The notes beneath the pieces were generated by a model. That model saw only the letters and a list, made by a program, of their open reading frames with translations, was not told the origin of the DNA and ran no database searches. From assembly GCA_008632985.1 (NCBI GenBank), contig QPGO01000113.1, forward strand, positions 2,947 to 66,946: 64,000 nucleotides of DNA, read 5' to 3'. Each line of letters opens with the position of its first letter. The first letter of the stretch is position 1. Position numbers and translations under genes: made by a program. This DNA comes from Psammoneis japonica. Its lineage: Eukaryota. Below are positions 24,601 to 64,000 of this stretch, in pieces.

Positions 24601-26323
24601 GTCACTGGACCATTGGAACTTCAGTTCTTGCACAGTGAAAAGTGGCCCAATCTTGCACTCAAATGTGTCAAGTGCACTGTGCCTCTGTGTTTGTTTGAAG
24701 GCAGGGTCATTGTTTGGCACTGTTTTTTTTTTTAAATGGCTCATGATTTTCCCATTTTCCAGCACTTTGCCTGTGTCATTTTGTGATGCCTCTGAGCACC
24801 CCAAAACACTTGCGAGCATTTCCAGCCCCCATCAGGGCTGGCAGACCTTTGTGTGAGCTGCACTCGTTGACCTTCAAATGCCAATTGTTGGTTTTGGTGC
24901 AGTTGTTGTGTTCAACAAACCACCATTTTTTGCCAAAGTTGGGCCACTTGTGGCAAACAAGCCACAGCTTTCCAGGAAATGCCAATGGCTTGCATTTGAT
25001 TTGCTGTGGACATGTCTGCAGTTGACAAGCCAAGCATCTCACAACAACTGTCACATGTGCATTCTGTGATGTCTTGTCAACAGACAAAGTTGGGCCTGTT
25101 GCTGAAATTTGTGTTTGCTGAATGTGCGCAATTGGCGCAAGGAGTCCAGGTTTTTGATGAAGCAAAAATGTGAGCTCTGCACAAAGTCGACAGCCAAACA
25201 ATGACCCATCCTTGATCTGAATTTTCTTGTGCAATGTGGCAGGAAAATTCAAGTCAAAACCAAGATTTGTTGAACAACATGCAGGAAAATTCAAATCAAA
25301 AGCAAGAAATGTGTGTTGGGCTCAAGTGACAAAAATTTCGTGCGAGCGCGCATGCACTCCCAGGTCATTGTGACACTGGGTGCAGCCCTCCCCATTGCTT
25401 GCTGAGAGCAGCTGTGTCATTGGCACTCCAGAGAGCAGCTCTGCACACCTGCCAGCAGGTGGGGCCATTGACTGTTTGCACCAAGCAGCCAACAACATCA
25501 AATGCCAGCCATGGAAATTCTCAAGGCGTGCAGCGGACGCTTCTTTCAATGCTCCAGACAGCTTGGCTCTCCTTGCCAAGGCTGGCTGGGCAACTTTCTG
25601 TTGTTGATGGCAGCTCCACCCATCCACCCAATGCTGCTCTTTTGTTCCTCTTTGTGCAACAGCCCCCCCCCCCTTCTTTCTCTGCCTGTGCGGCGCCATT
25701 TGCCGCTCTGCCAAACAAGCCACATGACTTGCTTGTGGCTCTTTAAAAAAAGGAGATCAAGAGGGTCAGGCCAAGCCAAGCTGTGGTGCTGCTGAGTCAA
25801 CCAAGACAGCACTGGGCAAGGTCTCTTCTTCGCCCTGTGCCCACAAGCCAAGATTCCTGGGCCAGCTGGCGCTGCTTGAGCTCATCCCCTCGCTCAATCC
25901 AGTGGGTTTTTTCCGTGTGTGAAGCTGCTGCCACATGGAGCTGTTGGTCATGCTGTTTGTGTGTGGGGAGAAAGAGCAACCATTGTTTTTGGATTCTGTT
26001 TTGTGCTGCTTCTGGAGGTTGATTGCGTTTGTTTGCATCCAACAGAAGCGCGTCACCTGCAGAGCTGACGCCCAACGCCAACGCCGGCGGCCGCCGCCAA
26101 CGCACAGCACACGCACTGCATGCACTTCGTACTTCTAGCAACAAGCCGAATCCGACCGACCATCACCCATCACCCATCACTCATGCAGCACAACGCACGC
26201 ACAACTCACGATCTCTCCCAAAGCAACAAACAACCACACGCAGTCGACTCGTTTCCCTTCATATGAACCTTTAACATCAATCAGATCAAACAGAGTGAGT
26301 CATTTAGCCAAACGTACAACAAC

Positions 26324-28524: not shown

Positions 28525-29547
28525 ATGGCAGAAGTAGCGGTGAGTTCTGTGTCGTTCGATGATTCGTTTTGATGAAGTTTCGATTGGTAATATTGTAGAA
28601 GAGTATCAGTGAACGAAAGCCGTCGCCGTATCGGATGTGTGGAGGTGAATGTTGTTTCGTACTCTGTCCTACGTGCGTTGTGCGTTCGGCGTATTTGAAC
28701 TCGTACCTGAACTTCGTTGCATTTGCTCAAATTTGCTGCTGTATTGTTGAACAAACTAGGGAACACCTCTTCAAACTGGCTACAGCTTCTGGTACATGCG
28801 GCGAGGCAAAGGAGGTTCGGCGAACAAGGAAGACACGGCGAACAAAGATGATTCTGCTGGAGCGACCACGACCCCGTACGAGAGCTCAATCAAAACTATC
28901 GCAAGCTGTAAGACGGTGGAGGGCTTCTGGGAAATCTACGATTTCCTTGTAAGGCCGAACGACTTACCAACGACGACGGACTATCACTTTTTCAGGACGG
29001 GCATTAAACCGACCTGGGAGGTAAGAAGTTGGAAGTACCGCCGTCGGCTGCAGAAATTGGCAAATTTCACAGCTCTCACATGTTGTGTTTCGTTTATTAG
29101 GACCCCGGCAACGCGCGTGGGGGGAAGTGGATCGTGCGTCTTCGGAAGGGGCTGGCAAGCCGCTACTGGGAGGAAATTATGTTGGCTTTGATTGGCGGAC
29201 AGTTCCTTGGTATCCAGGACGGTGAAATATGCGGTGCTGTGGTGTCGATACGTTTTTCGGAGGACATTCTGTCGATCTGGAATCGAACTGCCTCTGACCG
29301 GGAGGTCACCGAGAGACTTCGGGATGCCATCAAGAGAATGCTTCAGCTTCCTCCTCATGTTCATATGGAATATAAGGCGCACCAGGCATCGCTACAAGAC
29401 AGGTCGTCGTTTCGCAATACGCAGGTATGGAAACCCAAGTCTCTTGAGAGGGGTACTAGCGAGCCCCATCGCAGATCCTCATCTTGGGGAGAACGTGAAG
29501 AAAGAGGTAAAGGAAAGAGGGAGTCCGAGCGATCGTGGCGTTCCTAG
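28525..29547 (+). CDS. eIF4E family protein, class II (4EHP/nCBP-like); introns 28540-28759 and 29021-29100
   Basis: PLQTGYSFWY, TVEGFW, DYHFFRTGIKPTWE|DPGNARGGKW, ICGAVVSIR. Tyr at the W43/W56-equivalent positions marks class II. Confidence 0.9.
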
Positions 29548-32900: not shown

Positions 32901-34071
32901 CATCGCTTGCGGCCGCCGCAGCCTCTCGCACCTTGTCGTATTCCTCCTCCTGCTCTTGCGTAAGAGTCACCTGGTCCGGTCCCGTCGCACTGCGCTTGAC
33001 TTTTTCATACTCCTCTTCCAAATCATCTTGCGTTTTCTTGTACTCGTCGATTTCTTCTTCCAGCTTGGCAAGAGTCGCGTCATGCGAATCCGCTTCCTTT
33101 TGTGTCTTGCGTAGTTGCTTCTCATCGTTCTGAAGCTTCTTGGTAAGGTTCTTGATCTCTTCAGTCGTTTGAATAATGGAGGGTTCCAACTTGTCCACGG
33201 CCGCCGCAAGCTGTACACGCTTCTTATCGGCCTTGGCGGTTTCCCGGCGAGCGGCGCTTGCCAGTTTCTTGGCCTCCCGCAATTCAGACTGCCCCTGTTG
33301 CTCGACTTCTTGCGTTTCCTGTAATTCCTCCTTCAATTCCTTGACGGCGGCATCACGTTCCTTCATGGAGAAATCAATGTGAAACAGAAGCCACAAGTAC
33401 ATTTCAGTCTGTAGCTCTGCCTTTTTCTCTAACATGGTATGAAATCGTTCCGATTCTTCCTTTTGATCCTTCAAGAGTCGCCGTTCCGACTTGTATCCCT
33501 TTTGCTTGTTATAGCAAAATATGGTGGCAGCCTCGGCTTCTTCCTTGGCCTTGAGTGCTTCCTCGTATGCTTCTCGCAGTTCCGCCGACGTGGAAATCTG
33601 TTCCAGCATGTCCACCAATTCCTTGGGAGATTTGCGAGCAATGCTCTCCACGTCTCCCTGAAACACCAAAAAGTTTCGAGCCTTGAGCAACACTCCAATC
33701 TCTCCCAAGTGCTCTTCATACTCCTTGAACGTCACAGTCTTCCCGTCCACCTTGTATGTGGCTACGCCCTGAGGAGAGATGGTTCGCGCAAAGCGAGTCT
33801 CCTCTTGCGTGTCGGGGTCTTGATAAAGGAGAGCCGCACTCGCTCGGAGATTGGCGGGCCGCTTTCCCGGGGGCCGAAAAATCAAATCCTTGAGCTGAGA
33901 CGATCGAAGATCGCGGGACTGAACGCCCAGCACAAAGGATATAGCATCCATGAGGTTGCTCTTGCCGCTGCCATTGGGGCCAATGACGGAGGTAAAGTCG
34001 TGAAAGGGGCCAATGCGCTGCAAGCCCGAATAGGACTTGAAATTCTCAAGCTCGATAAACGTGACGGGCAT
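29922..34071 (-). CDS. SMC1: Cohesin subunit SMC1 (2 introns, ~32655-32742 and ~30215-30295)
   Basis: Walker [20 protein letters not shown], hinge domain, [18 protein letters not shown], Walker [12 protein letters not shown], final exon IVISLK. Confidence 0.97.
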
Positions 34072-49314: not shown

Positions 49315-50690
49315 CGGAAGTACAAGTCGACATACCGGTAGAACGGGTCTCCTAGTTGAAACGAAGTTTTGGGTCTCTTTTTGCAGGACTCACATAGTGG
49401 TATTAGTTTGAACATAACAGGAGCCTAGCGATCTCTTCCTGTTATTTCATTGTTGATGACGATTGTATGGGACGAATCCGAGAATCGCAATGACTTCTAG
49501 ATTTCTCAATAAACCAAAGAATGATGAGTGAAACTATCGGCCCGAGAGCGCACAGGTTCACCGCAATACGAAGGTCTGGATAGCCCTACCGTATTGCTCT
49601 ATTCGTTTTTCGAGTTATGTTTCTTTTCTCTCACCGTATGAACCGAAGCAAAATTCGTCCATAGGCGTTTGTGGTAGCTGTCCATATTCTCTGTTCATCA
49701 CAATCACTACTGCAAAGTGTCTACAGCCCGAGGAATCATGCGCTTTGATCTCCATAGATGACAAAGCTATTGACTCCAACAAAAGTCGTGGTCTTGCGTT
49801 TTACAATTCCAGAATCATTAAATTTTCATGAGTATTTAAGATACAGATTGTGCTCACTAGAGGGCCTGCCGGTACAGGCCTTACTGCGGCATTCGGGAAA
49901 ATGCCACCAATGGATTACGACGTTACTCTCAAGGTCTACAGAGTATGACAGATTCCGAGATGACAGAACTTTAATGTTGATCCTGCTTTTGCAACACCTG
50001 GCAACCACAGTCCTAAATGGCCATAAAACCCTCAAGCAACAGTCACAACCCACGTGTTATCAGCCGCAGCCCATGCAATACTAGCCAAAACCCGTTCTGG
50101 GTCAGGATATTTTTTTCTCTGTTTGCGTAGTCCATGCGCGAGATCCCCGTAATCCGATGAGTGGAAGCTTGCCGCGGTATTCAGTGCAACTGCCATCACT
50201 CTTCATCGTCACATCAAGGGCATTCGTCTCTTTTTCCATGAAGAAATTGTTGTATCCCTGCAGGATGCTCAAACTGTCATGATCTTTAAGAAATTTTTAG
50301 TGTTTGGAGAAAGGATAAAAATTGTGTTGTTCACAGATTGTTCCTTTCGGTGTGTCAACCATTGGCGCCTTTTCCGCTGATTTTGCCACGAGCGAAAAGT
50401 GAAAGTGGCGCGACCTTGCTAATATTCATATTTAGCTCTGCATATAAAATACATTTTTTTGAATGTTCATGCCGTATACCGGGTACCGGTACATACAGTA
50501 CGAACGATCGACAGACTTGATGATGAGAGCCACTAAAAAAAAAGGCGGGAAATCAACATCAAAAACAGCAATTTCGTTAGTTGTAAGTCTGAAGTCCGAA
50601 GCCACTCTCATCAGTTACGCTGCTACTGGGCAACCAGCTTCTAGCTAGAGATTTGTTTGGTCAAAGGACTTGAGCCGCTTCGTCTAAACC

Positions 50691-53064
50691 ATGGAAGATC
50701 GAGAATCATCACTGACGGACTTTCGAGAAATTCTGTCTCAACCCGAAGACACCTTGTTGTCGCTTCTTCGTCCTGAGCAAAATGTTTCTGCCAAGGAAAT
50801 TAAAAATCAGTTGCGTGAAACCTGTCGACATCTCTTTCTGGAAGTGGAACAACTTTCCAAGGCACATCATGCATTGAGAAATAATACTGCGAAAGGCGAT
50901 GAACCACCAGAGTCGTCCCTCTCTGGCTTGGACCAGTTGTACACTGGGACGGAAGAGCAGCCCGTGGACGCAGAGACACTGTGGGGTCAGATCGAGATAC
51001 AGAATACAGCGTTACAACCGCTTTTAAAAAAGTCGCTGAAACGTGTAATCAAAGCCATGGATGGAGAAAGAGGTGACGAGGTGCGCCTGTTGGACCTTGG
51101 CGGCGTCTTGAGCGACGACGAGGAGTCAGAAAAAGAAGGAGAAGAAGAAGACGTGGGCGCGAATGGAACTGAGCCGTCGTCCGAAGAACAAGATGACAAC
51201 GACGACGACGCGGACGAAGAAACATTGCGTATGCGCAAAAGGATGGAACGAGCAATGGCTGACATGGCTGACAGCGATGCTTCCGATATTGACCAGGCAC
51301 AAAAGAAAGATGAGGAGGAAAACGAAACCGAGGAGGAATCGTTGGTTGACCCCGCCGCCGAAGAATTGAACAATGGGTTCTTTGATATAAATGAAATGGA
51401 GGCCTTTGCAGATGAAGAGGAGGATTATTTGCCCGAGGAAGCGTTTGGAACTCCCCGGCCTGAAGATACCCGCAAGAAGGAAAAGAAGTCGTTTCATCAA
51501 CGACAACGTGAAGGTGATATTGGATCATCAAGCGATGAGTCTGACGAAGAGGAAGAAGTAATCTTTGGTGAAGCCGAGGGACAGCCTCATATTCGCAGGC
51601 GAAAGTATCGAGATGACGACGAAATCAAACAATTGTATAAAATGTATGAGACTCCCGACGGTGAGGGGGAGGAGGACGAGGGTGACGACGCGATCAATAT
51701 GACTGCGGCAGACTTTTTTGGCATGCCCAATAAGAAGTACTTTCACAAATGGAAAACAGGAAATAGCGAGTCTCTGAATCAAAACCCGGAACATTATGGA
51801 GATGAAGATGACAATGATTCTTGGGATGACCACGATTTTGGACAAAGTGACGACAAATCTGGCGGATGGCGCAATACAAGTAAAATTCAAGACGACCACG
51901 ACGAAGGGGATGAAAGTGACAAACCTGATGAAACCCTGGATGGTGACGAGGGCGAACTTTCAAAGCGAAAACAAACCAAAAGGCTAGATAAGCTACTTCA
52001 GCAAACAGAACAACTGGAAAAGGATATGCTTGCCGAAAAACCGTGGCAGATGACTGGTGAAACAAAATCCACATCGCGACCAGTCAACTCTTTGCTTGAA
52101 GCAACACCGGAATTTGAAGTTGCCACTAAAATGGCCCCCATTATCACAGTTGAACACACGACCAATCTGGAAGAAGTGATTAAGCGCCGCATTCTTAACG
52201 AAGACTGGGACGACGTTATCCCTCGAGAACTACCCGACATTGGGTGGCACAAGAATCGGTCCGAAGCACCTGAAGTGAGTCAAGAAAAATCAAAGCTAGG
52301 TCTAGGTGAACTGTACGAACGGGAGTATTTGAAGAAAGCAGTTGGGTATGATGTAGAGGCTGTTGAGAAACAAACAGAAGAAGAAAAGGCTAAGAATGAG
52401 ATGAAGGCGCTGTTTGCCAATTTGTGCAGCAAATTGGATGCTTTGTCGAATTACCACTTTGCTCCGCGACCAATCTCCAGCGAGACTGAGGTTAGACCGG
52501 TTTCTACGCCAGCCATCGCAATGGAAGAGGTCCTGCCGTTGCACGTCAGTGATGCAAGGGGTGTAGCCCCGGAAGAGGTGTACGGGAAAAAGAGAGGTCG
52601 CGACGGAGTCCTTCGCGGGGAAACAGAGCTGGACCAGGTATGCTTTGATATTGTGGTTCGCATTCATTGTAATTACTCCGTATTCTTATTCTATCTCTGC
52701 ATCCTGTCTTTGCTTGTGTCACCAGGCGGAACGCAAGAGACTCCGCGGCGCTAAGAAGACAGCCCGAAGAAAGAAACGAAAGGAGAAGCTTGCGGACGAG
52801 AAGCTCATTTCACGGTTGGAACCCGGCCTTGGCCTCAACAATCCTTACGAAAAGAGAAAGCATCGAGAAGAAATGGCTATTGCACGGGCTCAGGACAAGG
52901 TCACCACTGGCAAGATGGATGCCAATGCCGACTATGGCGCAAGTGGCAAATTCTTCAAACGGATGCAGGAGCAAGTGGAGCAAACAGTGAAAGGGGAAGG
53001 CCCTTCCGATAAGATAACGAAGCCGCAAAAACATGGCAAAAAATCCAGTTCATTTAAGCTCTAG
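50691..53064 (+). CDS. MPP10: U3 snoRNP protein Mpp10; intron 52638-52725
   Basis: Acidic middle region; KPWQMTGE, RPVNSLLE, SQEKSKLGLGELYEREY, KLDALSNYHFAP, PAIAMEEVLP; ends SSSFKL. Confidence 0.95.
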
Positions 53065-53114
53065 CCTCCTTAGTACTAGTTAAAGTTTCTTCCCTTACGC
53101 CTTCGCCGAGCACT

Positions 53115-53999
53115 TCAATAAAGCTTCTTTCTGCGCAACAGAAAATTCTCTTGTTTCTGAATTTCAAGTAGCAAATCGATTTCATCGAGGACAATCTCGC
53201 GAATGAAGAAGTCGAGTATTTTGGGTGTTGGTGATGGATCACGAGGAACATAATAGGAAAAGCCAGCAAAAGATCGTTTCTCTAGGTCACCAGCGCGGGC
53301 CTTTATGAACTTTCGGTAATCACGATCGCTTTCTGTTGATTTCGATCCTTGATTCTCGTGTTGCGTTACATCCAGTACATATTGACGATGAAAAGCATAG
53401 ACTTTTTCCTCTTCAACTTGAGTGATACCCACAGGCCTGGCAGCATTTAGCGTTTTTGCTTTTCCTTTCAGCTTTTCCTTTGGCGAGCTAGAATTTACAG
53501 CAAGCACGCCATTTTTCAACGTTCGGTCCAGATACAGATCAAACGGCGAATAGAGGTGGCGCTTTGACCACCAGAGAATCAAATGATCACGAAACGTCCC
53601 GCCACAAAACATGCATCTATCTGGACTATGCGCACTGGGTGGATACAACAGCTTCAGGATAGACCCAGGTTCAATTCTAACAAACCTGCGCCCCCCTCGT
53701 CCTTCGTATATCTTATCTCTCATCAGATAATGACATAAGTGGTATTTCGCAGCCGACAACGCATCCCACACAAATACACCGCAAGCTCGTCGATTGGAAG
53801 CGATACTTGAAATCGCTGTGACAGTTTTCTGATCTTGCTTTGACACTGTTTGAGTAATCTTTTCAGCAAGCTTGAGAGGTTCCCATCGAGGCCTTCTCGG
53901 CCATGATTGGCTTGGTTTTTCTAGGGTTGCACCCCGCACTCCTTCGATTGAGAAGAAAATGACTTTTGCTAGTATGAACAACGCCGCAAACCCTTTCAT
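53115..53999 (-). CDS. Hypothetical protein with signal peptide (294 aa)
   Basis: Intact ORF of normal composition (Tyr present) with a hydrophobic N-terminus; no family recognised. Confidence 0.65.
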   Translation of the reverse strand: MKGFAALFILAKVIFFSIEGVRGATLEKPSQSWPRRPRWEPLKLAEKITQTVSKQDQKTVTAISSIASNRRACGVFVWDALSAAKYHLCHYLMRDKIYEGRGGRRFVRIEPGSILKLLYPPSAHSPDRCMFCGGTFRDHLILWWSKRHLYSPFDLYLDRTLKNGVLAVNSSSPKEKLKGKAKTLNAARPVGITQVEEEKVYAFHRQYVLDVTQHENQGSKSTESDRDYRKFIKARAGDLEKRSFAGFSYYVPRDPSPTPKILDFFIREIVLDEIDLLLEIQKQENFLLRRKKLY

Positions 54000-54120
54000 T
54001 GTCTAAAAATCAAGTGCGCGGTAGTGAGCACCATCGTCATCGCTGCCGCAAGGTGCGAGGTGCGCGCCAAGCTAAATTCCGCGCCATACTGTAGGAAGTC
54101 ATGGGATCCACGGTGACATG

Positions 54121-54294
54121 TGCAGTAACTCACTCGCACGCTTCTGACATAGTATATTAATTTTGGATATTAGATTAACGTAGCCGTTTGAGAGGGCTCG
54201 CCAGCACTCGCCAGCGCTCGCTGACGCTTAGGCTCTCCCTCTCTTCGGTCTACTCACTTCTTTGTTTTGACATCAACCTCAGCTTGAGCTTGCA
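54121..54294 (+). repeat. 5' LTR (174 bp, TA mostly retained)
   Basis: TGCAGTAACT...GAGCTTGCA; collinear with 59409-59592. Confidence 0.95.
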
Positions 54295-54505
54295 CTGTAA
54301 TTACAGTCGATTGTAAAGAGCTGAATGAGAAATAACGACACAATTAACAGGCTTGCGAAACAAGAGAAAAGAACTTTGAGAGCGAAGGCAGCGAGTTGGG
54401 CTTTGGAACAAAAACGAGAAAAGGAGACACGAAAACAACGCGAACAGGATTTGGTGATTCGGGTGGCAAAACTCAAATCGAAGGTAGAGCACTTGAAACA
54501 GTTTC

Positions 54506-55741
54506 TTGGTGGACCAACTTGGCCTGATGAGCAATCGCGAGAGCCTTGGGGAACCGTGCATTTTGCATGCTGCGAAATTTGCTCACTCGGGTTTGGAGCT
54601 CGCAAAATTGACTCAATCGCATGACGATGGAAGCACGCGTACGAAAAAGTGCCCTTGTTTTGACGGAAGCAATGGAATTGAAGTGTTGTTGTTTGTGGAA
54701 GATCGTTTTCGTAAACTGGCTGCAAAACTCGAGTTCACTGCAGGAGAAGAATCATTTGACAATTTTGAAGAAGCACTGACGGACACAGCTGAAGACAAAT
54801 GGTCCAATCTCACCATGGCGATTCCAGATGCGCAGAAAACGGCAGCTCGTTTCGACCAAGAGTTGGCTCGTTTTTATTTGTCACATTGTGAAACTGAAGC
54901 TCATGACACGATGATTGAATGCTTGCTTGCTCTTAAAAAGCCGCGCGACGTTGAAGCACAGGCACACGCAGATCGAATGGAAACTTTGGCACGACACACA
55001 AACAAGTTGCCGGGAAATAATCCAGTTGTCACTCAGAACCAAAAGAAGAAGATGATTTTTGACAGCTTCCCTCTGTCGTGGCGCAAGATGCACACAAGAG
55101 CAGGACGCACGATTGGAAATGACACGCTGGCGGAAATGGTCACGCACATGAGCACGGAGAAATCGTTTGCGGACAGGAACAAGAAGACGTCGAAAAAGTG
55201 CAAAGATGGACAGAACAAAGGCAGCTCGAACAAGAAGAAAGGCAATCGCATTGACCCAGAGCCCCAATGTCCATTGCACACTCACAATCACAAGTGGAAA
55301 GATTGCGCCATGAATCCCGACTCCAACAACTGCCGTCCAAGAACTGATCGCGGCGGTCATGGATGCAGTGGCCGTGGTGGTCGAGGTGGCGGTCGCGGTG
55401 GAGGTCGTGGTTGTGGCGGAAATCAAGGTCGTGGTTGGCAAGGCCGTGGATGTCAAGGTCGTGGTGGTGGCCGAGGAAATTGTGGCGGTCGAGGAAACCA
55501 CAACTCTGGCGGCAACAGCGGCGAGCATCATGAAGATGGTGGCTCCCACACGCAATGTCAAAACAACACCCGAGCCAGTGCAGATGGTGGCGGTTGCCGC
55601 AATCCGGCCAGAATGGCTCCTCCCAATGATTGGTCTGCTGAAAGCCATCATCTTGATTCCACAGGAGGGCCTCGTGAGTGTCGAGGTGGAGCGGGAAGTT
55701 TTCGACCTGGTGGTCGCTTCTCGGGACGCGGTCGACACTGA
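54506..55741 (+). pseudogene. Gypsy gag with CxxH-H-W-C knuckle and RGG-rich tail
   Basis: Long open frame; CPLHTHNHKWKDC; GRGGRGG repeats; true start uncertain. Confidence 0.8.
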
Positions 55742-55792
55742 CCCAATGAGCTTGAAGAGCTGTCGTCCGAGTGTGTCGCTCCTGATTCCCAC

Positions 55793-58700
55793 ATGTTTGA
55801 TGATTGCACTGATTGCATTGATGATTGTCGTGCACATGCTGCTGATTTGTTTGATGATGACGATTTCGAAAATCACACCATGAATGACGAAGACGATGTG
55901 GGACTTGAGTGCGCTGTGCCAACCCCAAAAACAAAACCAACCAAACCTTTGAATGTGGTCCCTGCAACCTCATTCACGGCGTGATTCATTCAAGACAAGG
56001 AAAGCAAGCGCGTGATGCGGGTGTTGCTCGACTCTGGTGGAACCCATTCAATGATTCATGCTCGGGTGTTGCCAGTTGGAGCGGCGCCAGCATTGGAGGA
56101 CACAGGACCAATTGTTGCGAAGTTTCAGACGTTGGTGGGAGAACTCAAATCTGCTCGTTACGTTCGACTGCGGGATGTGGTGCTCCCTGAATTTGACAAG
56201 ACCAAACATGTTGATGGCATGCATGTGCATGTGTTTGACTCACCTTGCCTGCACGATGTGATCCTTGGACAGGACTTCTTGGCGAGAGCAGGCATCACGT
56301 CAGATTTCGAACACGGAATTGTCAAGTGGCTCGATTCAAGCACATTGCAATGAAACCAAGAAACCATCGGATTGGCATCCAGCAGTGGCTTGACGACTTG
56401 ACTGATGAGCCAGCTGACGATGATGATGCATGGGACAGCTGCATCCTCGATGCAAAGCATGAGGAGACGTCCCCTTCTGAAGTGGCATTGGCTCAGAAGC
56501 ATCTCACTGCCGAACAACAAGAAAAATTGTGCCTCGCATTGGAAAAACACACTGCTCTTTTTGGTGGCACTCTCGGCAAGCATGCTGGCGAAAAATTTCA
56601 CCTTGATGTTGATCCCAACGCTGTTCCTTGCCATTCTCGAGCGTGTGCAGCACCGCACAATGATCTCGAGACTTTCAAACAAGAACTGGATCATTTGGTG
56701 GCTCTTGGCGTTCTTGAAGAAGCCGGAACAATGGAGTGGGCTGCTGGTGCTTTCATTCGGCCAAAGAAGGATGGTCGAGTGCGGTGGCTCAGCGATTTTC
56801 GGGAACTCAACAAAGCACTCAAGCGCAAGGTTTGTCCTTTGCCGATCATTCAAGATGTGCTGCAGAAGAGAGCCGGGTGCAAGTTTTTGACCAAATTGGA
56901 CCTCTCAATGATGTGCCGTGCACTCGAATTGGATGACGATTCCAAGGACTTGACGACAATCGTGACGCCCTTTGGAAAGTGCCGATGCTGCCATTCAGCA
57001 ATGGGTCTGAAGCCGGCTCCAGACATTGCACAATGTTTGATTGAGAAAACTGTGCACGACTTGGATGTTGACGCGTGTGTTGATGATCTCGCTCAATTTG
57101 ATGATGACTTTGACATTCACCTTGACCGCCTTGATGAACTCTCACAACGCTTGGAAGAAGCTGGGTTCAAAGTAAATCCCTTGAAATGCGAATGGTGGGT
57201 GCAGGAAACGGATTTCCTTGGGCACCGGCTAACTCCGACTGGAATTCATCCGTGGAAGAAAAAGGTGGAGGCTGTCCTGTGAATGCAACCTCCGGAAAAC
57301 ATCAAGCAGCTTCGTTCGTTCCTTGGCGCTGCAACGCATTGTCGCAAAATGTGGCCTTGGCGTTCTCACCCATTGAAACCCTTGACAGATCTTACAGGCA
57401 AAGGCTCATGGACATGGACAATGGAATGTCAGGCGGCGTTCGATGAGATGAAAGCAGTCCTGGCGGCTGAAACATCAACGGCACATCCGAATCACAACAA
57501 ACCCTTCCATGTCTGCACCGATGCAAGTGATCACCAGATCGGTGCAGTGATTGTGCAGGATGGAAAGCCCATTGCATGCTGGTCTCAAAAGCTCAATGCG
57601 GCACAACAAAACCATTTGACGATCGAAAAAGAACTGTTGGCCATTGTCATGTGCTTCCGAGAATGCCGATCGATGCTCCTTGGCGGCGACTTGCATGCAT
57701 TCACTGACCACAAGAACCTCACCTTTCGCACCTTGAATTCACAGCGCGCACTTCGTTGGCGACTCCTTCTGGAAGACTTTTCTCCTCAGTTTCATTGCAT
57801 TGAAGGCCGATTGAATGTCTTGGCTGATTGTTTTTCTTGTTTACCTCGCATGGATCCTCCCTCTGAAGGGAAGAGCTTGGCTCCGGGCAAAGGAACTGTT
57901 GTTGATTTTGCTCCGCTCGATTCGAAGTTGGTGCCGAGTGAGGAACCATCCGAAGTCGAGGATTTCCGCAATGAGGACTTGGAGCTCGGCGCATGCCGAT
58001 TTAAGTGTTGTCGCAACATTGAAAATGAAGGCCACTCACACTTCTTCTCTTTCTTTGTGGATGAGCCGGAGCTGTTCGATTCTTTCTTGAATTGCCCTGT
58101 GATGCAAGAGATGCAGAATCCGATGACGTTGCAATGCATTCAGGAGCACCAGTTCGAGGACCGACAGTTGAACCAGATGCGCGCTGCTCACCCTGATCGT
58201 TCCCTCGTGGAACATGTGAACAATTGACCACTTGTGTGTTGTTGCATGCGACCGAATGATCCTCCAGGACAGTGGAAAATCTGTTTGCCGACTGCGCTCA
58301 TGCCCGACATCTTGCGGTGGTGTCATCTCGTCCTTGGCCATGCCGGAAGCCAGCGCATGCGTGAAACGATCCAGGCTCATTGTTGTCATCCTGGGTTGCA
58401 TTGCATGTGTGATGAATGCTCTTGTGCTGGTTGCCAATGCAACAAAACTTTGGGTCCTGGCTGTGGAGAGTTGCCCGAGCGAGAAGCTCCATTGACTCCC
58501 TGGTCGGAAGTGGCGGTTGACCTCATTGGCCCATGGAAAATCAAAGCACCGAATGGAGAGATTGAGTTTCGGGCATTGACCTGCATTGATCCTGTCTCCA
58601 ATCTTGTTGAACTTGTGAGAATTGAAAATGAAACTACCCGACATGTTGCCAACCAATTTGAAAACTGCTGGCTTGCATGCTGTCCCAGACCGAATCGATG

Positions 58701-59286
58701 CATCCACGACAATGGCGGCGAGTTCACCGGGTGCGATTTTCAGATGCTGTTGCAACAAGCCAGAATTGATGATGTGCCGACTGCTTCATGCAACCCTCAA
58801 GCCAGCGCCATTTGCAAATGAATGCACCAGACCGTCGGCAATGTGTTGCGCATGCTCATTGCTTCTAACCCACCTCAAAATCTTCAAGATGCAGCTGGCC
58901 TCGTGGACGATGCTTTGGCAACTGCAATGCATGCAACTCGCTGTGCTGTTTCCCGTTCTTTACAGACTTCGCCAGGTGCTGTGGTGTTCGGATGTGACAT
59001 GATCCTAGATGTCCCTGTGCTGGCAGACTTGTTGACGATCCAAGGCCATCGCCAGACGCTGATCAACAACAGTTTGTGAAGAGCCAATGCCAAGAGAAGA
59101 TCCTGCGATTGTCAAGTGGGTGATCAAGTTCTGATCAAGTCGGTTGACCCGTCCAGACTCGAGCCTCATGCTCATGGCCCTCATCCCATTGTTCAAGTGC
59201 ATGTGAGTGGCGCGCTTTCGCTTCGTCGAGCTCCTCATGTGGTTGAGCGCCTCAACATTTGGCACCTGATTCCTTTTCGTGGTTGA
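55793..59286 (+). pseudogene. Gypsy pol (PR-RT-RH-IN) with frameshifts, TGA stops and Tyr->Cys/His substitutions
   Basis: VLLDSGGT; FLTKLDLSMMC; PFGKCRCC; ACVDDL; VCTDASDHQIG; NHLTIEKELLA; EVAVDLIGPW; HDNGGEF. Confidence 0.92.
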
Positions 59287-59408
59287 TCAGGGGGTTTTCT
59301 TCCCAACACCTGGGTTTCCTCCTGCCATTGTGATTTCTTTGGGTTTTTGTCCCTGGTTTTGGCCCTTTGCATGATCCTCTGGTTCTTTCGGATCATGGAA
59401 GGGAAGAG

Positions 59409-59592
59409 TGCAGCAACTCACTCGCACGCTTCTGATGTGTGGTGTCAATTTTCGACATTGGATTAACACAGCCGTTTGAGAGGGCTCGCCAGCACTCGCC
59501 AGCACTCGCCAGCGCTCGCTGACGCTTGGGCTCTCCCTCTCTTCGGCCCACTCACTTCTTTGTTTTGACATCAACCTCAACTTGAGCTTGCA
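59409..59592 (+). repeat. 3' LTR (184 bp, TA-erased, one extra AGCACTCGCC unit)
   Basis: Follows the PPT; followed by the TSD. Confidence 0.95.
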
Positions 59593-60778
59593 ACATGGCG
59601 AGGAGCGAGAAGTGCTGGGCTTTGTGCCATGTCACCTTTTGATCAAGCTCTGATGGTGGAGAACATTGACATGAAAGGGAACAACATCCACACAGCTGCG
59701 ACACACATGGCTTGGGGGTGACACCATCAGAGCGCAGAGGGCCCACCACTGAAAAGCCAGGGAGGGGGCCAGATCACGGGGCCTGCTGCTGGCGACGATG
59801 CAGCACGGTGATCTGCTGAGCTGCTGTCATCCTCAGCCACAGGATTGGCCTGCAGCTGGGGATGCACATTTTTGTGAGATTTTGTCAGGAACTCGGAGCC
59901 CACCAAATCATGAACATGTGAGGGCAGCTCCCAACAAGCCGGAGCTTGCTGCCAGCATTGTGCTGTTCTTTTGCTGTCTTCTCTTGCACTGAGTGGGCCA
60001 GCTGGTGGTGCAAACAATTGCTTGTGTCCACTCAAGAAAACAGCAGCTCTCTCCGCCTGTTGTCACATCTCCAACATCTTGCTGGTCCCAAGACCACTCA
60101 TTCTTTGACTTGCCGCCACATGTGAAAGCTTCCTTGACATGGTTGCAGGCAACAAGTGCAGTTGAAGATTGTCACATTGTGGTTGTGCACAATCTGTGGT
60201 GCAACAAGCATGAGAGAGGGGTGGCACAAAGTGCGGGGGATGATGGCTTGCCTCAGCAAGGTCTGTGCTCCTGGCGCTGACATCAAGCACAACTTGGTCT
60301 GAGCCATCAGGCAACATCTCTTCTGTCAGAAGCCATGGTGCTGTTTTGGCAACCCAACATGCTCTCCAATGTGACTGATGCATTTCCAAGCAGCCCCTGC
60401 ACCAACACGACACACACACAGCCCCCTTTTTCGCAGCAGACAGTTGCAACATCAACAAAGGTGATGTGCCACAACATTGTTGAAGCTGTCTCGAGGAAAT
60501 GTGTTGTTCATCTCAAAATGCTGATTTCAGATGTGTGGTGGGTTGGGGGATGCTGGCCTCATTGCCTGTTGTGGCTTGCACGTGAAAGAGCAGCGTCTCG
60601 TTGTTTGCAGCCGATGGGGGCTTGTTTCTGACAAGCTCGCACCAGTGTGCTTGTCAAGTGGAACCTGCCAATCCAAAACAGTGGAAAAATGAGACTGCTT
60701 GCTGACAGACCTGGCCAACAGCTCCACCCACATTCCCGCCACCATCTCAGATGCCGAGTTTCTCAAGAGGTCCCCTTG

Positions 60779-63700
60779 TGCACTGTGCTCGAAGAACGAG
60801 TGTAAACGAAAGTAGAGCAGTGTACGAAAAGTGGAAATTATAAGATTGGATTTTACTCTGTGATTTTTGGTTTCTCCGAATGAGTTCTCAATGGCCTGAA
60901 GCTTCTGCACTGCTTCCACAGACAAAAGGCCTTTCGGAGAACATGATCGTGACAACAGACAGTCCGAATGCGATTGCTTTTGACACATGAGATGTCAGCA
61001 TCGTCCATCGATCGCATTTGCGATTTTCGACTTCCGATCAACTCTGTGTGATTGTTCTGTCCTTCGCACGCATCCACGACTGTGGCACAATTGACGTGCA
61101 AACAACATGCAATCACACACATGTGTGCAACAGTCGCGTGCTGCACTCGCCTCCCTAATTGCACATTAGAGTCATTTGTTGAGTGGATTGTTTGACGGAC
61201 ATTGACAGTGTCAATGATGTCTCCACGTTCACTGCATTGTGCCATTGGCAATGACTGTTGTCGTTTTGTGTGGGCCATGTGGGGCCGTTCCAATTTCCGA
61301 ATGTCTTGTGAGAGTGACATCGTTTGTTTCTCACTTTGTGCACATGCATGTGCAGCATTGCGTCGAGCATTCTCGTTGACGTTCTTTGTTGACATGAACA
61401 CAAGGACCAATTGTCCTGCAGTGTTTTTCATGACATCGATTGCACCTGGCATTGTGCCCAGCACTCAATGTGCGCTCTTTTAATTGTTGTGGCGTTCACT
61501 TCACTTGTGGAGTTCATGCAGTTCTGGCTGGCTAACTTTGCATGTGCCACATTGCTCTGCTGCACTTCCATGTGTCGTAAGTGGTTGACGATGGTCAAGG
61601 ACATTTTCCAACCATTTTTTCTTGACAATCCTGGGATGGTTGTGGACTCCTTTATGGATTTCTTTGTCACTTCAACCATCTTTCCTTTGGATTTTGATTG
61701 TCATTTGGACGTTTCTTTTTGACATGCCGGTGACATTTTGTCATTCCGAAGGCACTGCTTTTGTGCACTGTTCGGACAAATGTCCATTTTTGTGTTTTGT
61801 TTCTGAATCTTTGGCACATCTCGTGTGACGTTGTTTATGTCTTGCCTCGTACATCGTACACTGCAATCGTGCGGGTGCTGCGAGATTGTCTTTTGCCAAT
61901 GTGAAGTGGGTGCGTGCAATGCACACCAATCTGTCACTGATTTTTTCTTCAACCGTCCCCAAGCAAGGCGATTTTTTCCTTGTGACATGAGCATTTTTGA
62001 TCTCGCTCGAAAAGTGTTCGCATGACATGTCGCGTCCGACAATTTGGAGGAAATGTCTTTGTCCCGTTTTGTTCAGTGTCGAGAACTTTGCAATTTAATG
62101 GAAAGACATTGTCGCAGGATTTTGGTGGGACCTTTTCAGCTGACTCTTCTGTGCTGAGGTTTTCCACAGGTTCTATTTTTTTTCACAGCAAGTCGGCTGA
62201 TCGCTCTTGCGACGCGTTCGCCTTGCCCTCGATGCATTTTATTTCGGGACTGGAATTCTGCATTCTAAGTCGTCAACGCATGACTCTGTCCGTTGTGTGT
62301 CATGAACCGCACACATGACAATCTGTTGGCCAAACAGCACATTCCGGGAATTGTCAAGTGTTTCCACTGTGGACAGAAGTTCTTTTTCCGTTGTGACTTG
62401 AACATCACAATGCCATGTTTGACAGTGACACAGTTTTTGATGTGATGCGCTCCATGTTTTCGGAGACTTTTCGTTCTGCACTTGTCCTTTTGCCGTTTGA
62501 CCTTTGTTGAGGTGGATTTGGCTAGAAATGCACAGGAGATCATTGAGACTACATGTCTTTACAGTGGCAACATGTGTCGACAAGCTGTCGTAATTTTCTT
62601 TGCGTTTTGCTCAATGTTGCGATTGCCGGAATCGCCTCCATTTTCTTTGCAATCGGATGCATGCCATTGCGCATGGAAGTCTTGATAATTTTTTTCAAGT
62701 CAAGCAGTGAAGGACTTTTGTTTGTCAACCTTCAAAGCGACTGCTCCAGTTGCATGAATGCCATTTCAAGTTTTTCTTGTGCAGGTGACATTTTGAAGTT
62801 GTTTTCTGTCAGGTGCAAATGTTCATTCTCAGTCGTTCTGACAACTCCAAACCTGCCATGAGTTCGCTCATGCGTTGCACGAAAATGTGTGGGGCTCCAC
62901 AGATTCTTGTCGGAAGTCCACAGCACTCATTTTCCCCCACGGCATCACTCTGATGTGAGCACGACGTGTGCTTTTTGATTTTACATTGTGGTGTTCCATG
63001 ATTGAATCGCAACTTCATTTTTAAAACTTCAATCTTTCACAATTGGTTGAATTCCTTTCAAATGAATGCCTCCAAAGACCATGACAGGAGAAGGTTCTCA
63101 CACGTCGTGGAATCGCGTCAGATTTTTTCACGGCGAGATCCATTGATTCTTTTAATTCATTTGTCCAAGGAACTTTTCAAAAGGATTTCAAACCTCTTAA
63201 GAAGGAGACTGAGTGGTTTATCTTCTTTTGGTCAAGATGCATTGCTGCAGCTGTCACTTGATTAGAATCGACGGCGTGACAATGTGAGTCGAGAACCATC
63301 GGTCTCGTCATTGACTCTGTTCACCGCGCAATGTTTTTCAATGTGATCGGCATTCAGCTGGAACATTTCTGCATCGAAGAGTGCATCAACATTCTTCATG
63401 GGGCAATTGCTTCATTCCCATTTGATTTCTTCAATTGCGCAGTCTAGTGTGATTGCAAAACTGGACATTGAGTCGCGTCCCATGATCATGTCATTCGACC
63501 TTGAAGGGCATTTGGTGTCATTGACACACACTGTTTGAACATCAGCAAGTCTTAAATTCGCGCACTGAGAACTGAATTCGGTGTTTGCCATCAGTCGTAA
63601 AGAGCTCACCCTTGGTTTCCCAAGTTTTTTGGTGGCGGATGTCTTGGTTCTCAACTTTGCACGATTTTGCACAAAATCATGGGCTGACGATGTTCTTCAT

Positions 63701-63800
63701 CGAGAGAACACGCAGAAGCTCATTTTTTGCTTTTCTCAGAGAAGTGGTCATGTGGACAGCGAGAATGGGACTCGCACAACACACTGTGATGCTTTTTCTG
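60779..63800 (-). mobile_element. Degraded Ty3/gypsy element (pol + 3' LTR), related to the relics at 4.9-6.9 kb and 22.3-24.6 kb
   Basis: Minus strand TTEKELLSTVETL, CGLPTRICGAP, LLCISS, VPPKSCDNVFPL (compare VTPESRDNVFPL near 24.07 kb); LTR homologous to 4920-5261. Confidence 0.85.
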
Positions 63801-64000
63801 GGTTTCCAGACGTCCTGTGGTGCGCTGTGCTCCTTGAGCGGCATAAATTTTTGATCGGACTCGATCGGGTCAATTTTTCTAAATTGACAGTTTCACTTGT
63901 CAAGCGTTTTAGAGTCTTAATTTTCGCTCTTGTTTTTACGTTCCTTTGTCGAGGAACTCGCTTTGATTGTTTTTGTGAACTGCCTGGTTCACAGTTCAGT

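Follow-up and report, generated by a model that had tools for sequence, protein, structure and literature searches.

Transposon-derived DNA in a pennate diatom has very probably been subjected, after integration, to a transition process that acts specifically at TpA dinucleotides in silenced domains. The window analysed here is a 64-kb stretch of the Psammoneis japonica genome, whose host genes group with those of raphid pennate diatoms, as expected from the original prediction that the host is a diatom. In the proposed course of events, an insertion would land in a silenced transposon domain, after which transitions from A:T to G:C would accumulate in the resident DNA on both strands, with 5'-TpA-3' as almost the sole target. 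With the process near saturation, each Tyr codon would become a Cys, His or Arg codon, and the transposon enzymes would die. For the chemistry, the leading though tentative candidate is that a TadA/ADAT2-like enzyme deaminates DNA adenine to hypoxanthine, which would be read as G; as predicted, no deaminase is encoded within the 64-kb window. The process was originally thought to match no described system. This stands for diatoms, for which the literature search found no report of TpA>TpG/CpA hypermutation; the same hypermutation is, however, described in an unrelated alga, Bigelowiella natans, in a 2026 preprint (Mettrop et al., bioRxiv 10.64898/2026.01.13.699255); no further report of a TpA-erasing mutation emerged from the literature search.

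The depletion of TA is confirmed by counting. The observed/expected ratio (o/e) of TA is 0.05 at positions 54,800-59,592, where 14 TA were counted against about 286 expected from base composition. The original count by eye, about 15 TA in the interior of the element, was about right, since 21 are present in 54,295-59,407, 11 of them within the first 725 bp. Neighbouring genes are TA-rich by comparison, as had been claimed, with o/e values of 0.87 (13-20 kb) and 0.57 (26.5-54 kb). Dinucleotide counts also bear out the erasure proposed for four further blocks (o/e 0.02-0.13; Table 1), of which the one at 59,600-64,000 retains 38 TA (o/e 0.13). Within the 64-kb window, TA o/e falls below 0.2 in 25 of 64 one-kb segments, every one inside repeat blocks; besides the transposon blocks, tandem repeats also lie within erased DNA. 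The depletion is restricted to TpA, since AA, TT and AT have o/e values of 0.7-1.5 where that of TA is 0.02-0.05. TG and CA rise to o/e values of 1.4-1.9 in erased blocks, and the values of 1.62 for TG and 1.38 for CA in the element at 54,121-59,592 correspond to the products of both strands.

Table 1. Coordinates of erased blocks and element features within the 64-kb window (TA, CG and CpG values are o/e).
Feature	Position	Strand	Basis or remark
TA- and CpG-erased repeat block	1..7500	.	TA 0.04 (19 TA), CG 0.09
TA- and CpG-erased block	8000..11500	.	TA 0.02 (4 TA), CG 0.14; gradual fade to 13 kb
Older gypsy-like element	20600..26100	+	TA 0.04 (15 TA), CpG 0.21; both edges sharp
Target-site duplication ACATG, 5' copy	54116..54120	+	direct reading; same 5 bases after 3' LTR
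5' LTR (TG...CA), not hypermutated, 11 TA	54121..54294	+	direct repeat with 59,409-59,592
Boundary zone of mutated domain	54295..55018	+	TA positions and 200-bp profile; first 51 bp 5 TA, next 673 bp 6 TA
Gag-like ORF, 411 aa	54506..55741	+	ORF
Aspartyl protease (LLDSGG)	56012..56353	+	Pfam Asp_protease_2, E 8.7e-6
Reverse transcriptase, catalytic motif CVDD	56761..57231	+	Pfam RVT_1, P0001 residues 123-279; translation
RNase H: CTDASDH, ACWS, NHLTIEKE	57415..57780	+	Pfam RT_RNaseH and RT_RNaseH_2, residues 341-462
Integrase core	58537..58797	+	Pfam rve, residues 715-801, E 1e-4, below curated cut-off
Polypurine tract GGAAGGGAAGAG	59397..59408	+	direct reading
3' LTR, hypermutated, 1 TA remaining (TTAA context)	59409..59592	+	LTR comparison
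Target-site duplication ACATG, 3' copy	59593..59597	+	direct reading
Flank, 0 TA, single-copy by depth	59598..60800	.	TA count and X1 depth
Older gypsy-like repeat, partial erasure	60801..64000	-	TA 0.13-0.17

The element at 54,121-59,592 is a complete Ty3/gypsy LTR retrotransposon, as predicted: the LTRs, a 5-bp target duplication, a polypurine tract and the order protease, reverse transcriptase (RT), RNase H and integrase are all present, and identity to gypsy polyproteins is 45-61% in the 120 among the matches listed. The Gag-like ORF has no Pfam match, while the integrase region is supported by tblastn coverage with gypsy polyproteins that extends to 59,280. The protease lies in a different reading frame from the RT, and two bases at 56,341 are missing from about half of the other copies, as judged by depth in one public run (X1, about 62x, assembled into k-mer contigs), which may be the assembly's own data. 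Copy number and single-copy status refer throughout to depth in this run at a likeness of at least 90%. The block at 20.6-26.1 kb has a tblastn gypsy match (22,538-24,590) and an Integrase_H2C2 domain (24,216-24,635), and retains Tyr at 0 of 212 positions, a count pooled over eight queries that are not independent. It is resembled in reverse orientation by the repeat at 60,801-64,000, whose summed depth is 2,000-35,000. For block 1-7,500, the only family clues are a zf-CCHC domain at 7,401-7,943 and similarity to 22.3-22.7 kb.

The polarity of the mutation, with TpA lost and CpA or TpG gained, is fixed by positions where homologs conserve Tyr. The pol translation contains no Tyr in 965 residues, against 2.6-4.5% Tyr in all 120 homologs among the matches listed. 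Among 40 homologs, 22 columns have Tyr in 70% or more; at these columns this copy has the codons TGY (14), CAY (6) and CGT (2) and so reads Cys, His and Arg, respectively, and Tyr is never kept. Other conserved columns are retained at 71-100% overall (His 14/14, Ala 24/24, Cys 13/14, Trp 13/14, Pro 37/39), and conserved Arg is changed to His, Cys, Trp, Gln or stop in 11 of 38. The codons agree with the claim of an A:T>G:C change specific to TpA and acting on both strands, and every motif on which it had been based is found in the translation (ACVDD, FGKCRCCH, VCTDASDH, IACWS and NHLTIEKE). The claim that transposon enzymes are destroyed is likewise borne out, the RT active-site Tyr being among the 22 lost. 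At the level of the translation, protease, RT, RNase H and integrase are inactivated through their Tyr codons and without frameshifts.

The two LTRs of this single insertion provide the evidence on timing. The 5' LTR has 11 TA, of which 10 correspond to TG or CA in its 3' counterpart; the one TA left there, common to both LTRs, lies in a TTAA. Of the 18 differences between the LTRs, 10 are TA>TG/CA. The mutation therefore took place after integration, although the TA of the 5' LTR might be owed to gene conversion instead of protection. The element is present at about 30-50 copy-equivalents (summed depth 2,000-3,000 versus 62). Other copies show the opposite state at 55,366/7 and 57,461/2, CA standing for the TG of this copy or TG for its CA, and about one copy-equivalent retains TA at 57,461/2. 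Within 14 kb, the positions at which 10% or more of the depth differs number only 233, fewer than expected if 30-50 copies had mutated fully independently. Much of the erasure is therefore probably inherited from a common, already mutated copy that was duplicated or trans-mobilised; the shared states could also be determined by context.

The preferred target is TA followed by a pyrimidine (T-A-Y), as seen from the ratios of trinucleotide frequencies between blocks and genes: 0.01 for TAT, 0.04 for TAC, 0.05 for TAG and 0.12 for TAA, with TGC up 1.9-fold. The TA that survives longest is Y-TA-R, TTAA above all. Residual TA is flanked as YTAR in 31 of 50 cases in blocks versus 298 of 1,447 in genes (odds ratio 6.3, p 6e-10), and as RTAY in one of 50 versus 29%. 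Since only 25% of CA and TG in blocks have Y..R flanks, TA formed de novo would not account for this bias. We propose that each TA changes to TG or CA, and that the occasional CG results from two hits.

The signature recurs in metagenome assemblies. Contig L025 has TA-free domains adjoining normal genes, and L024 is a 98.8% identical copy that differs at 55 positions, of which eight are TA versus TG/CA and two are TG versus CA doubles; the two contigs form one family and count as one replicate. Like those among copies of the gypsy element, the TA versus TG/CA differences between such near-identical sequences hint at an elevated rate of de novo mutation. A third locus, L007, is partly mutated, with lower ratios for TAT (0.20) and TAC (0.26) versus TAA (0.50) and TAG (0.80). 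Tyr is kept at 7-9% of positions in these three loci versus 65-68% in three TA-normal relatives (pooled over eight queries, not independent). Five of 150 representative RT homologs lack any Tyr, and whole-locus TA o/e is 0.52-0.95 in 46 of 50 related elements.

CpG decay (CpG loss with TpG/CpA gain, a footprint of 5-methylcytosine) also acts in this DNA, as seen from CG o/e of 0.09-0.21 in the three older blocks and from the 11 lost Arg columns of the pol translation. The domains of TA loss have sharp edges, which match those of CpG decay in the older blocks. Across 200 bp at 20,600, o/e drops for both dinucleotides (TA, 0.97 to 0.0; CG, 1.25 to 0.08); the two edges also coincide at 7,550, 8,000 and 26,000, and erasure stops no more than a few hundred bp from gene starts. 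CpG decay was rejected as the cause of TA loss because it removes CG, not TA, and proceeds with its own kinetics. In the gypsy element TA is at 0.05 but CG at 0.81, and a control locus (L034) has CG at 0-0.2 with TA at 0.45-1.0 over most of its length (0.20-0.39 in a GC-rich stretch). As a rough estimate, TA loss is about ten times faster per site. The prediction that the process is repeat-targeted gained no support in that form. At about 54,350, the edge falls within the gypsy element, and the neighbouring gene has its start codon about 350 bp away; the roughly 175-bp 5' LTR and about 50 bp of leader are spared though repeated. The flank at 59,598-60,800 is fully erased, while its depth (63.5 versus 61.9 on genes) marks it as single-copy; it may be an old, diverged transposon. 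The spared repeat, the erased flank and the edges shared with CpG decay beside gene 5' ends therefore suggest that the process is guided not by sequence homology but by chromatin that is silent or methylated, or by transcription of the element in cis. The signature may reflect genome defence, as first proposed, or could instead be a by-product of a chromatin mark.

The same footprint, targeting and consequences would follow from thymine chemistry, an unlikely alternative to adenine deamination. The T at TpA, preferably in R-T-A, would be modified, for example to 5-hydroxymethyluracil (5hmU) by a TET/JBP-type enzyme, and G mispairing or misrepair would then yield T>C. In a strand-symmetric footprint T>C and A>G are indistinguishable, T-A-Y is R-T-A on the opposite strand, and in dinoflagellates 5hmU is found preferentially at TpA and TpC. 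However, 5hmU pairs well with A, so that near-saturating T>C is not expected from 5hmU alone, and no such base is reported for diatoms in the literature searched. Regarding targeting, a homology trigger as in fungal RIP, where pairing recognises duplicates and the whole stretch is mutated with leakage into the flanks, is rather improbable. It would fit the transposon-like character of all erased blocks and the copy number of the element, and erasure of unique flank could be leakage. Against it, the 5' LTR and the adjoining 50 bp of interior belong to the repeat yet escape, at least 1.2 kb of DNA that is single-copy by depth is fully erased, the edges follow those of CpG decay and gene starts, and the main target in B. 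natans is single-copy according to the preprint.

Editing before integration, by an ADAR-like enzyme on retrotransposon RNA or by a restriction factor deaminating cDNA, is very improbable. ADARs prefer a 5' U, and many TG/CA states appear common to the copies. Nevertheless, a single insertion carries two LTRs that disagree at 10 of 11 TA sites, and reverse transcription makes the 3' LTR double-stranded at an early step. Editing of sense RNA would give only TG, whereas both TG and CA are present, six His and two Arg of the 22 Tyr columns reflecting sense-strand T>C; on these grounds ADAR-type RNA hyperediting was rejected. Erasure also continues unbroken into flanking DNA and extends to tandem repeats and to the remaining repeat blocks. 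In L007, TAG belongs to the contexts that suffer least, whereas ADARs favour a G on the 3' side; in B. natans, the preprint places the mutation in resident DNA. Two further explanations have hardly any probability left. Modified bases do cause motif-specific consensus errors in nanopore assemblies, and a modified TpA base in heterochromatin might have produced base-calling or polishing errors; but the X1 k-mer contigs reproduce both element junctions, at 50,000-54,184 with two differences, where the TA-rich 5' LTR adjoins the unique gene flank, and at 59,550-60,806, in the TA-free flank, with one difference in 1,257 nt. Public ORFs and metagenome assemblies of unrelated origin bear the signature as well, and the changes are fixed differently between copies. 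If these families had always avoided TA, for instance to escape a TA-directed nuclease or TA-targeting transposons, the depletion itself would be explained, and nothing more: all 22 conserved Tyr are lost, that of the RT active site included, and TA is at normal levels in the insertion's own 5' LTR as well as in most related elements.

Among known systems, ADAR hyperediting and APOBEC3 cDNA deamination in animals share with the diatom process enzymatic deamination directed against retroelements and, for ADAR, the 5' U preference. They act on RNA or nascent cDNA before integration and on one strand, whereas here the mutation is post-integration, on both strands and into flanks, and 3' G is not favoured. 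Ascomycete RIP is similar in permanently inactivating transposons through dinucleotide-specific transitions on both strands, near saturation, with leakage into flanks and with stop and missense changes without indels. In contrast, RIP converts C:G to T:A, mostly at CpA, and creates TpA, while here TpA is destroyed and CpA/TpG created; it also requires duplication and a RID-type cytosine methyltransferase homolog in the sexual cycle, while here a repeated LTR is spared and DNA that is single-copy by depth in one run is mutated. Identity with RIP was rejected, as TpA is lost and not enriched and the mutation does not follow duplication. Deamination of 5mC in methylated diatom transposons affects the same domains, with a symmetric dinucleotide target, TpG/CpA products and coincident edges, but removes CG instead of TA with separate kinetics. 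In the natural substrate of TadA/ADAT2, A34 invariably comes after U33, and for bacterial TadA the sequence read is U-A-C, which is similar to the T-A-Y preference seen in the diatom. TadA variants made in the laboratory as base editors deaminate DNA adenine; to our knowledge, no natural chromatin-targeted DNA adenine deaminase has been described.

By its footprint, the diatom process appears to be of the same kind as the TpA hypermutation of B. natans, which was measured directly in mutation-accumulation lines: according to the preprint, two viral regions acquired 231 de novo mutations, of which 230 were A>G or T>C, all of those at TpA, and an ADAT2-like deaminase is likewise proposed, with amphioxus ADAT2 cited as deaminating DNA adenine (bioRxiv 10.64898/2026.01.13.699255). 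The two cases have in common changes that are nearly all A>G/T>C, at TpA only and on both strands, and confinement to foreign-derived domains in an otherwise ordinary genome, here within the 64-kb window. The preprint further describes low-TpA coding sequences enriched in RT and DDE transposase domains, and a main target that is single-copy and silent. The hosts differ, a chlorarachniophyte (Rhizaria) versus a diatom (Stramenopiles), and so does the stage: B. natans was caught in progress (TpA o/e 0.45 in an NCLDV insert, no depletion in a virophage insert), whereas LTR retrotransposons here are at saturation (0.02-0.05). The words 'trinucleotide', 'flanking', 'diatom' and 'stramenopile' are absent from the main text of the preprint, and relative to that text, what the diatom adds to the B. 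natans account is the T-A-Y preference, the overlap with CpG decay and the way the edges behave.

TA dinucleotides are strongly depleted over much of the window. Counts along its whole length bore out the original prediction that the repeat blocks lack TA: the observed/expected ratio (o/e) of TA is below 0.2 in 25 of the 64 one-kb windows, and these are grouped in five blocks. Within the blocks, the o/e of TG and CA is raised to 1.4-1.9, and that of the GC dinucleotide to 1.1-1.3.

TA-poor blocks, gene regions and parts of the retrotransposon, in window coordinates
Feature	Position	TA count	TA o/e	Remark
Block	1-7,500	19	0.04	older block
Block	8,000-11,500	4	0.02	older block
Genes	13-20 kb	401	0.87	
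Block	20,600-26,100	15	0.04	older block
Genes	26.5-54 kb	1,024	0.57	
Ty3/gypsy element	54,121-59,592			
LTRs	54,121-54,294 and 59,409-59,592			
Block	54,800-59,592	14	0.05	about 286 TA predicted by base composition
Polypurine tract	59,397-59,408			
Target duplication				ACATG, 5 bp, flanks both element ends
Block	59,600-64,000	38	0.13	

Contigs from X1, a public sequencing run with a depth of ~62x on unique DNA that may be the source data of the assembly, match the window from the gene flank into the TA-rich 5' LTR of the element (50,000-54,184) with 2 differences, and across the junction of the 3' LTR with the TA-free flank (59,550-60,806) with 1 difference in 1,257 nt. The k-mer depth of X1 rules out an artefact of consensus polishing, even if these are the assembly data. 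In a Pfam scan of 65 stop-to-stop ORFs from the old blocks, only Integrase_H2C2 was above the cut-off; zf-CCHC was borderline, and a few weak matches fell below it. The 7.5 kb at 13,000-20,500 have normal TA and CG, no ORF longer than 136 aa and no Pfam match; if this is a repeat, it is an unmutated one. A 350-bp island between two erased blocks (7,600-7,943; TA 0.7-0.9, CG normal) abuts a single N at 7,944, and the adjacency may be a scaffold join. Among the genes, an SMC-family member (30,236-34,071, minus strand) occupies two long ORFs, one with SMC_N at the N terminus and one with the hinge and C-terminal SMC_N, and is presumably split by an intron. The eIF4E gene at 28,760-29,544 is also in two ORFs.

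The element is a complete Ty3/gypsy retrotransposon, with protease, RT, RNase H and integrase in canonical order, and its translation contains all the altered motifs that had been quoted for it (CVDD, GKCRC, CTDASDH, ACWS, NHLTIEKE). The pol frame is otherwise intact, with only point changes and TGA stops, bar a 2-bp difference at 56,341. By X1 depth, roughly half of the element's other copies lack these two bases; since the protease and RT frames are joined when they are removed, this copy has a 2-bp insertion. When the window is compared with itself, the family turns up just once; the matches found are LTRs, tandem repeats and relatives of 67-74% similarity. Because TAA and TAG have been erased (that is, TpA has become TpG or CpA), TGA is the only stop left, and false long ORFs arise in all six frames. 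Spurious ORFs of 100-330 aa lie on both strands of the element (six frames of 53,500-60,500) and are a trap for gene callers. Contigs of two other runs, X2 and X3, do not cover the element and are uninformative about its expression. Within 50,722-54,031, X2 contigs lie only on the Mpp10 gene and on an ORF at 53,115-53,999; one of 966 nt (53,066-54,031) looks transcript-sized, the run type being a guess, and stops ~90 bp from the 5' LTR.

The direction of change is recorded in the codons of pol. Translated through its five TGA stops (written as X), pol has no Tyr among 965 residues, 5.5% Cys and 4.6% His, compared with 2.6-4.5% Tyr and 1.1-2.8% Cys in all 120 listed homologs. Tyr is kept at none of the 22 columns where at least 70% of the 40 best aligned homologs have it: 14 read TGY (Cys), six CAY (His) and two CGT (Arg), so TAY codons have been changed by A>G on the sense strand, the antisense strand or both. 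The columns of other residues are kept at 14/14 (His), 24/24 (Ala), 13/14 (Cys), 13/14 (Trp), 37/39 (Pro) and 59/65 (Leu). Arg is the second notable loss, with 27 of 38 columns kept and the rest reading His (3), Cys (3), Trp (2), stop (2) and Gln (1); this is ordinary CpG decay.

The two LTRs of one insertion are identical at integration. In this insertion, 11 TA are counted in the 5' LTR but only one in the 3' LTR; ten of the 11 sites read TG or CA in the 3' LTR, and the survivor common to both sits in TTAA. Given that the LTRs started identical and now differ at TA sites, erasure of the 3' LTR took place once the element had integrated into the genome. At one further site the 5' LTR has CA and the 3' LTR TG, a pattern that separate hits on an ancestral TA in the two LTRs would produce, and the remaining differences amount to about 6 in 174 columns. 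Copies elsewhere in the genome agree with this. Where this copy has CA at 55,366/7, the others show TG; at 57,461/2 it has TG against CA in most others, with TA still present in about one copy-equivalent of depth; at 54,333 it still has TA, and the others have CA. Only 233 positions over 14 kb vary in 10% or more of the X1 contig depth. This is below the expectation for independent erasure of about 30-50 copies and argues against full independence. Much of the erasure was probably inherited from an already mutated copy, or else the outcome at a site is largely set by its context.

Sequence context matters beyond the TpA itself. Of the fifty TA still present in the most erased four blocks and the single-copy flank of the element, 31 have the form Y-TA-R; the figure for gene regions is 298 of 1,447 (odds ratio 6.3, p 6e-10). 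R-TA-Y accounts for 1/50 against 29% in genes. TTAA is enriched 5.4-fold among the survivors, and ATAC and ATAT do not occur. The block/gene ratio of trinucleotide frequencies is 0.01 for TAT, 0.04 for TAC, 0.05 for TAG and 0.12 for TAA, and the largest gains are those of TGC (1.9-fold) and GCA (1.8-fold). Since only 25% of CA and TG dinucleotides have Y..R flanks, TA arising from them de novo would not give the Y-TA-R excess. The adenine is hit preferentially when a pyrimidine follows, T-A-Y over T-A-R. This preference predicts more Cys than His at Tyr codons, and TG exceeds CA on the sense strand in three oriented elements. The idea of an additional transcription-strand bias was dropped, since a T-A-Y preference is enough to yield TG over CA at TAY codons.

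The left edge of the mutated domain falls inside the element: TA is normal in the 5' LTR and in the 51 bp with which the interior begins, the next 673 bp retain 6 TA, and only 10 are found in the 4.4 kb thereafter. Opposite the spared end lies an ORF in divergent orientation, with its start codon at 53,999. On the right side, erasure is unbroken through the 3' LTR into 1.2 kb with zero TA, which is single-copy by X1 depth (63.5 vs 61.9 on genes), and it goes on into an older gypsy-like repeat. Adjoining this flank, the segment 60,741-61,207 is a repeat of very high copy number, with a summed X1 depth of about 35,500, compared with 62 for unique DNA, or roughly 570 copy-equivalents. At 20,600, a span of 200 bp takes TA o/e from 0.97 down to 0.0 and CG from 1.25 down to 0.08; the edges of TA and CG also match at about 7,550, 8,000 and 26,000, the last being about 300 bp upstream of the start of the next gene. 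The edge at 11,400-13,000 is gradual rather than sharp (TA o/e 0.15-0.37, CG 0.45-0.7) and contains a 68% identical direct repeat (12,012-12,493 and 12,580-13,021). A TA-free domain also holds, at 20,671-21,949, tandem repeats with units of 182 and 201 bp (95-98% matches). Most differences between the units are of CpG type, and the expansion therefore probably postdates the loss of TA.

The three older blocks are depleted in both TA and CG (CG o/e 0.09-0.21). The gypsy element has a TA o/e of 0.05 but has lost little CG (0.81), and the block at 60.8-64 kb is the least advanced in TA (0.13-0.17, with CG at 0.8-0.9). TpA is lost faster than CpG, and the two are decay clocks running on the same domains. 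As a rough estimate, with both treated as first-order decay, the TpA rate in these domains is ~10x the CpG rate.

The Mpp10 protein places the host among the raphid pennate diatoms: its named relatives, 47-60% identical in local alignments, are from Fistulifera, Cylindrotheca, Nitzschia, Entomoneis, Mayamaea, Amphora, Seminavis and Bacillariaceae MAGs, and its best unnamed near-full-length match is at 58%. Similar signatures can be found outside the window. In the RT segment's 150 best representatives, drawn from 1.84 billion proteins, the median Tyr content is 3.5%; five lack Tyr and in two it is about 1% or less. One of the Tyr-less public ORFs, P0254 (699 aa), covers 20 of the conserved-Tyr columns and has His at 9, Cys at 7, Phe at 2 and other residues at 2. 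Fifty related gypsy loci from metagenomes were compared by TA o/e, and 46 of them have whole-locus values of 0.52-0.95; L024 has 0.16. In L025, which represents 22 kb of a 31.5-kb contig, TA-free domains occupy about 7.5-13.5 kb and the part past 20 kb, adjoining normal DNA with PMSR and RUS genes; a search of L025 for an LTR pair found none, and the single named match of the RUS gene in L025 is a model from Cyclotella cryptica (37% identity). The L024 and L025 elements are 98.8% identical and count as one replicate; their 55 differences include 8 of TA against TG/CA, 2 pairs of TG against CA and 15 of CpG type.

Tyr retention was scored where eight normal homologs have Tyr, as pooled counts that are not independent. 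It is 65-68% in three TA-normal loci (L001, L002, L004), 9% in L007, 7% in L024 and L025, and 0/300 and 0/212 for the window elements at 54-59.6 kb and 22-25 kb. L007, a 3.25-kb gypsy element, is partly erased (TA o/e 0.39, CG about 1.0) with ~90% of its Tyr codons gone, and TAT (0.20) and TAC (0.26) are lower than TAA (0.50) and TAG (0.80). This is an early-stage snapshot in which T-A-Y sites are lost first, and it supports the T-A-Y preference independently. The related metagenome locus L034, an 11.9-kb retroelement region presumably from a different kind of eukaryote, serves as a control: it has a CpG o/e of 0-0.2 and yet a TA o/e of 0.45-1.0 over most of its length (0.20-0.39 in a GC-rich stretch at 5.5-8 kb); methylation decay alone thus does not remove TA.

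Taken as a whole, these data show TpA-specific A:T>G:C transitions that act on both strands after integration, are confined to domains and depend on context. The original prediction had proposed such a process, aimed at repeats and without precedent; its core stands, while the mode of targeting and the absence of precedent do not. Homology-triggered targeting fits the domains poorly. The pattern fits a silent cytosine-methylated chromatin domain, or a cis-transcribed element region, with protection near an active promoter, and targeting probably proceeds via silent chromatin or transcription in cis. A base-calling artefact, an intrinsic avoidance of TA, and editing of RNA or cDNA before integration each conflict with several results.

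As for chemistry, adenine in DNA would be deaminated to hypoxanthine, and a TadA/ADAT2-type enzyme is the favoured, if still tentative, candidate. In the natural substrates of TadA and ADAT2, U always precedes the target A, and bacterial TadA reads U-A-C, a context that resembles the T-A-Y preference seen here. ADAR favours a 3' G, so that an ADAR-like specificity fits poorly. A thymine-directed route, through modification of R-T-A such as 5hmU, seems unlikely. As had been noted before, no deaminase was found encoded within the 64-kb window. A broader proposal, which we regard as rather doubtful, is that diatoms and chlorarachniophytes, perhaps much of SAR, have in common an undescribed chromatin-coupled DNA editing system. 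A dedicated writer, derived from TadA/ADAT2 or otherwise, would be recruited to silent 5mC-marked domains and act on the symmetric TpA with T-A-Y preference, possibly via a heritable TpA mark akin to CpG methylation whose decay leaves the footprint. If true, eukaryotes would possess a second 'mark and mutate' axis of genome defence, independent of the first, and with it a natural editor of adenine in double-stranded DNA.

Saturation in a diatom and echoes in metagenome contigs show that this is not a one-strain curiosity. The process spans at least two SAR lineages, among them major ocean primary producers. The enzyme thereby becomes findable by phylogenetic profiling, as deaminase, methyltransferase or dioxygenase paralogs common to lineages with the signature, and any candidate must account for the T-A-Y preference, action on both strands, edges in common with 5mC decay and sparing near active promoters. 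In such genomes, annotation and dating of transposable elements are distorted, as copies diverge by ~5-10% through the TpA process alone, and transgenes may suffer irreversible mutation once silenced. Base editing could also take an interest in a natural DNA adenine deaminase as a scaffold.

Mutational genome defence is known essentially from fungi (RIP, C>T). Its A>G counterpart has one report so far, a 2026 preprint on mutation-accumulation lines of the chlorarachniophyte Bigelowiella natans (bioRxiv 10.64898/2026.01.13.699255), which precedes the present case and makes the claim that no such system had been described out of date. According to that preprint, 231 of 302 nuclear point mutations fell in integrated giant-virus and virophage regions, and 230 of these 231 were A>G or T>C, all on TpA, at a rate of about 6e-7 per site per generation. 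It also reports 124 clusters of TpA-poor, CpA+TpG-rich windows and an enrichment of RT and DDE domains in low-TpA coding sequences, and proposes an ADAT2-like enzyme as a candidate. The words 'diatom', 'stramenopile', 'trinucleotide' and 'flanking' occur nowhere in its main text, and a full-text literature search returned no account of diatom transposons losing TpA specifically; Hoguin et al. 2023 (PMC9998398) discuss a RID-like DNMT4 in diatoms, and that discussion has nothing on TpA. The hypermutation in B. natans and that described here are the same kind of process, and the diatom case joins a genome-defence-like kind of hypermutation with this single recent report. New in comparison with B. 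natans are the lineage and the mutation of LTR retrotransposons to saturation, where polarity and post-integration timing are both directly proved, as well as the T-A-Y preference, the coincidence with CpG-decay domains and the behaviour of the domain edges.
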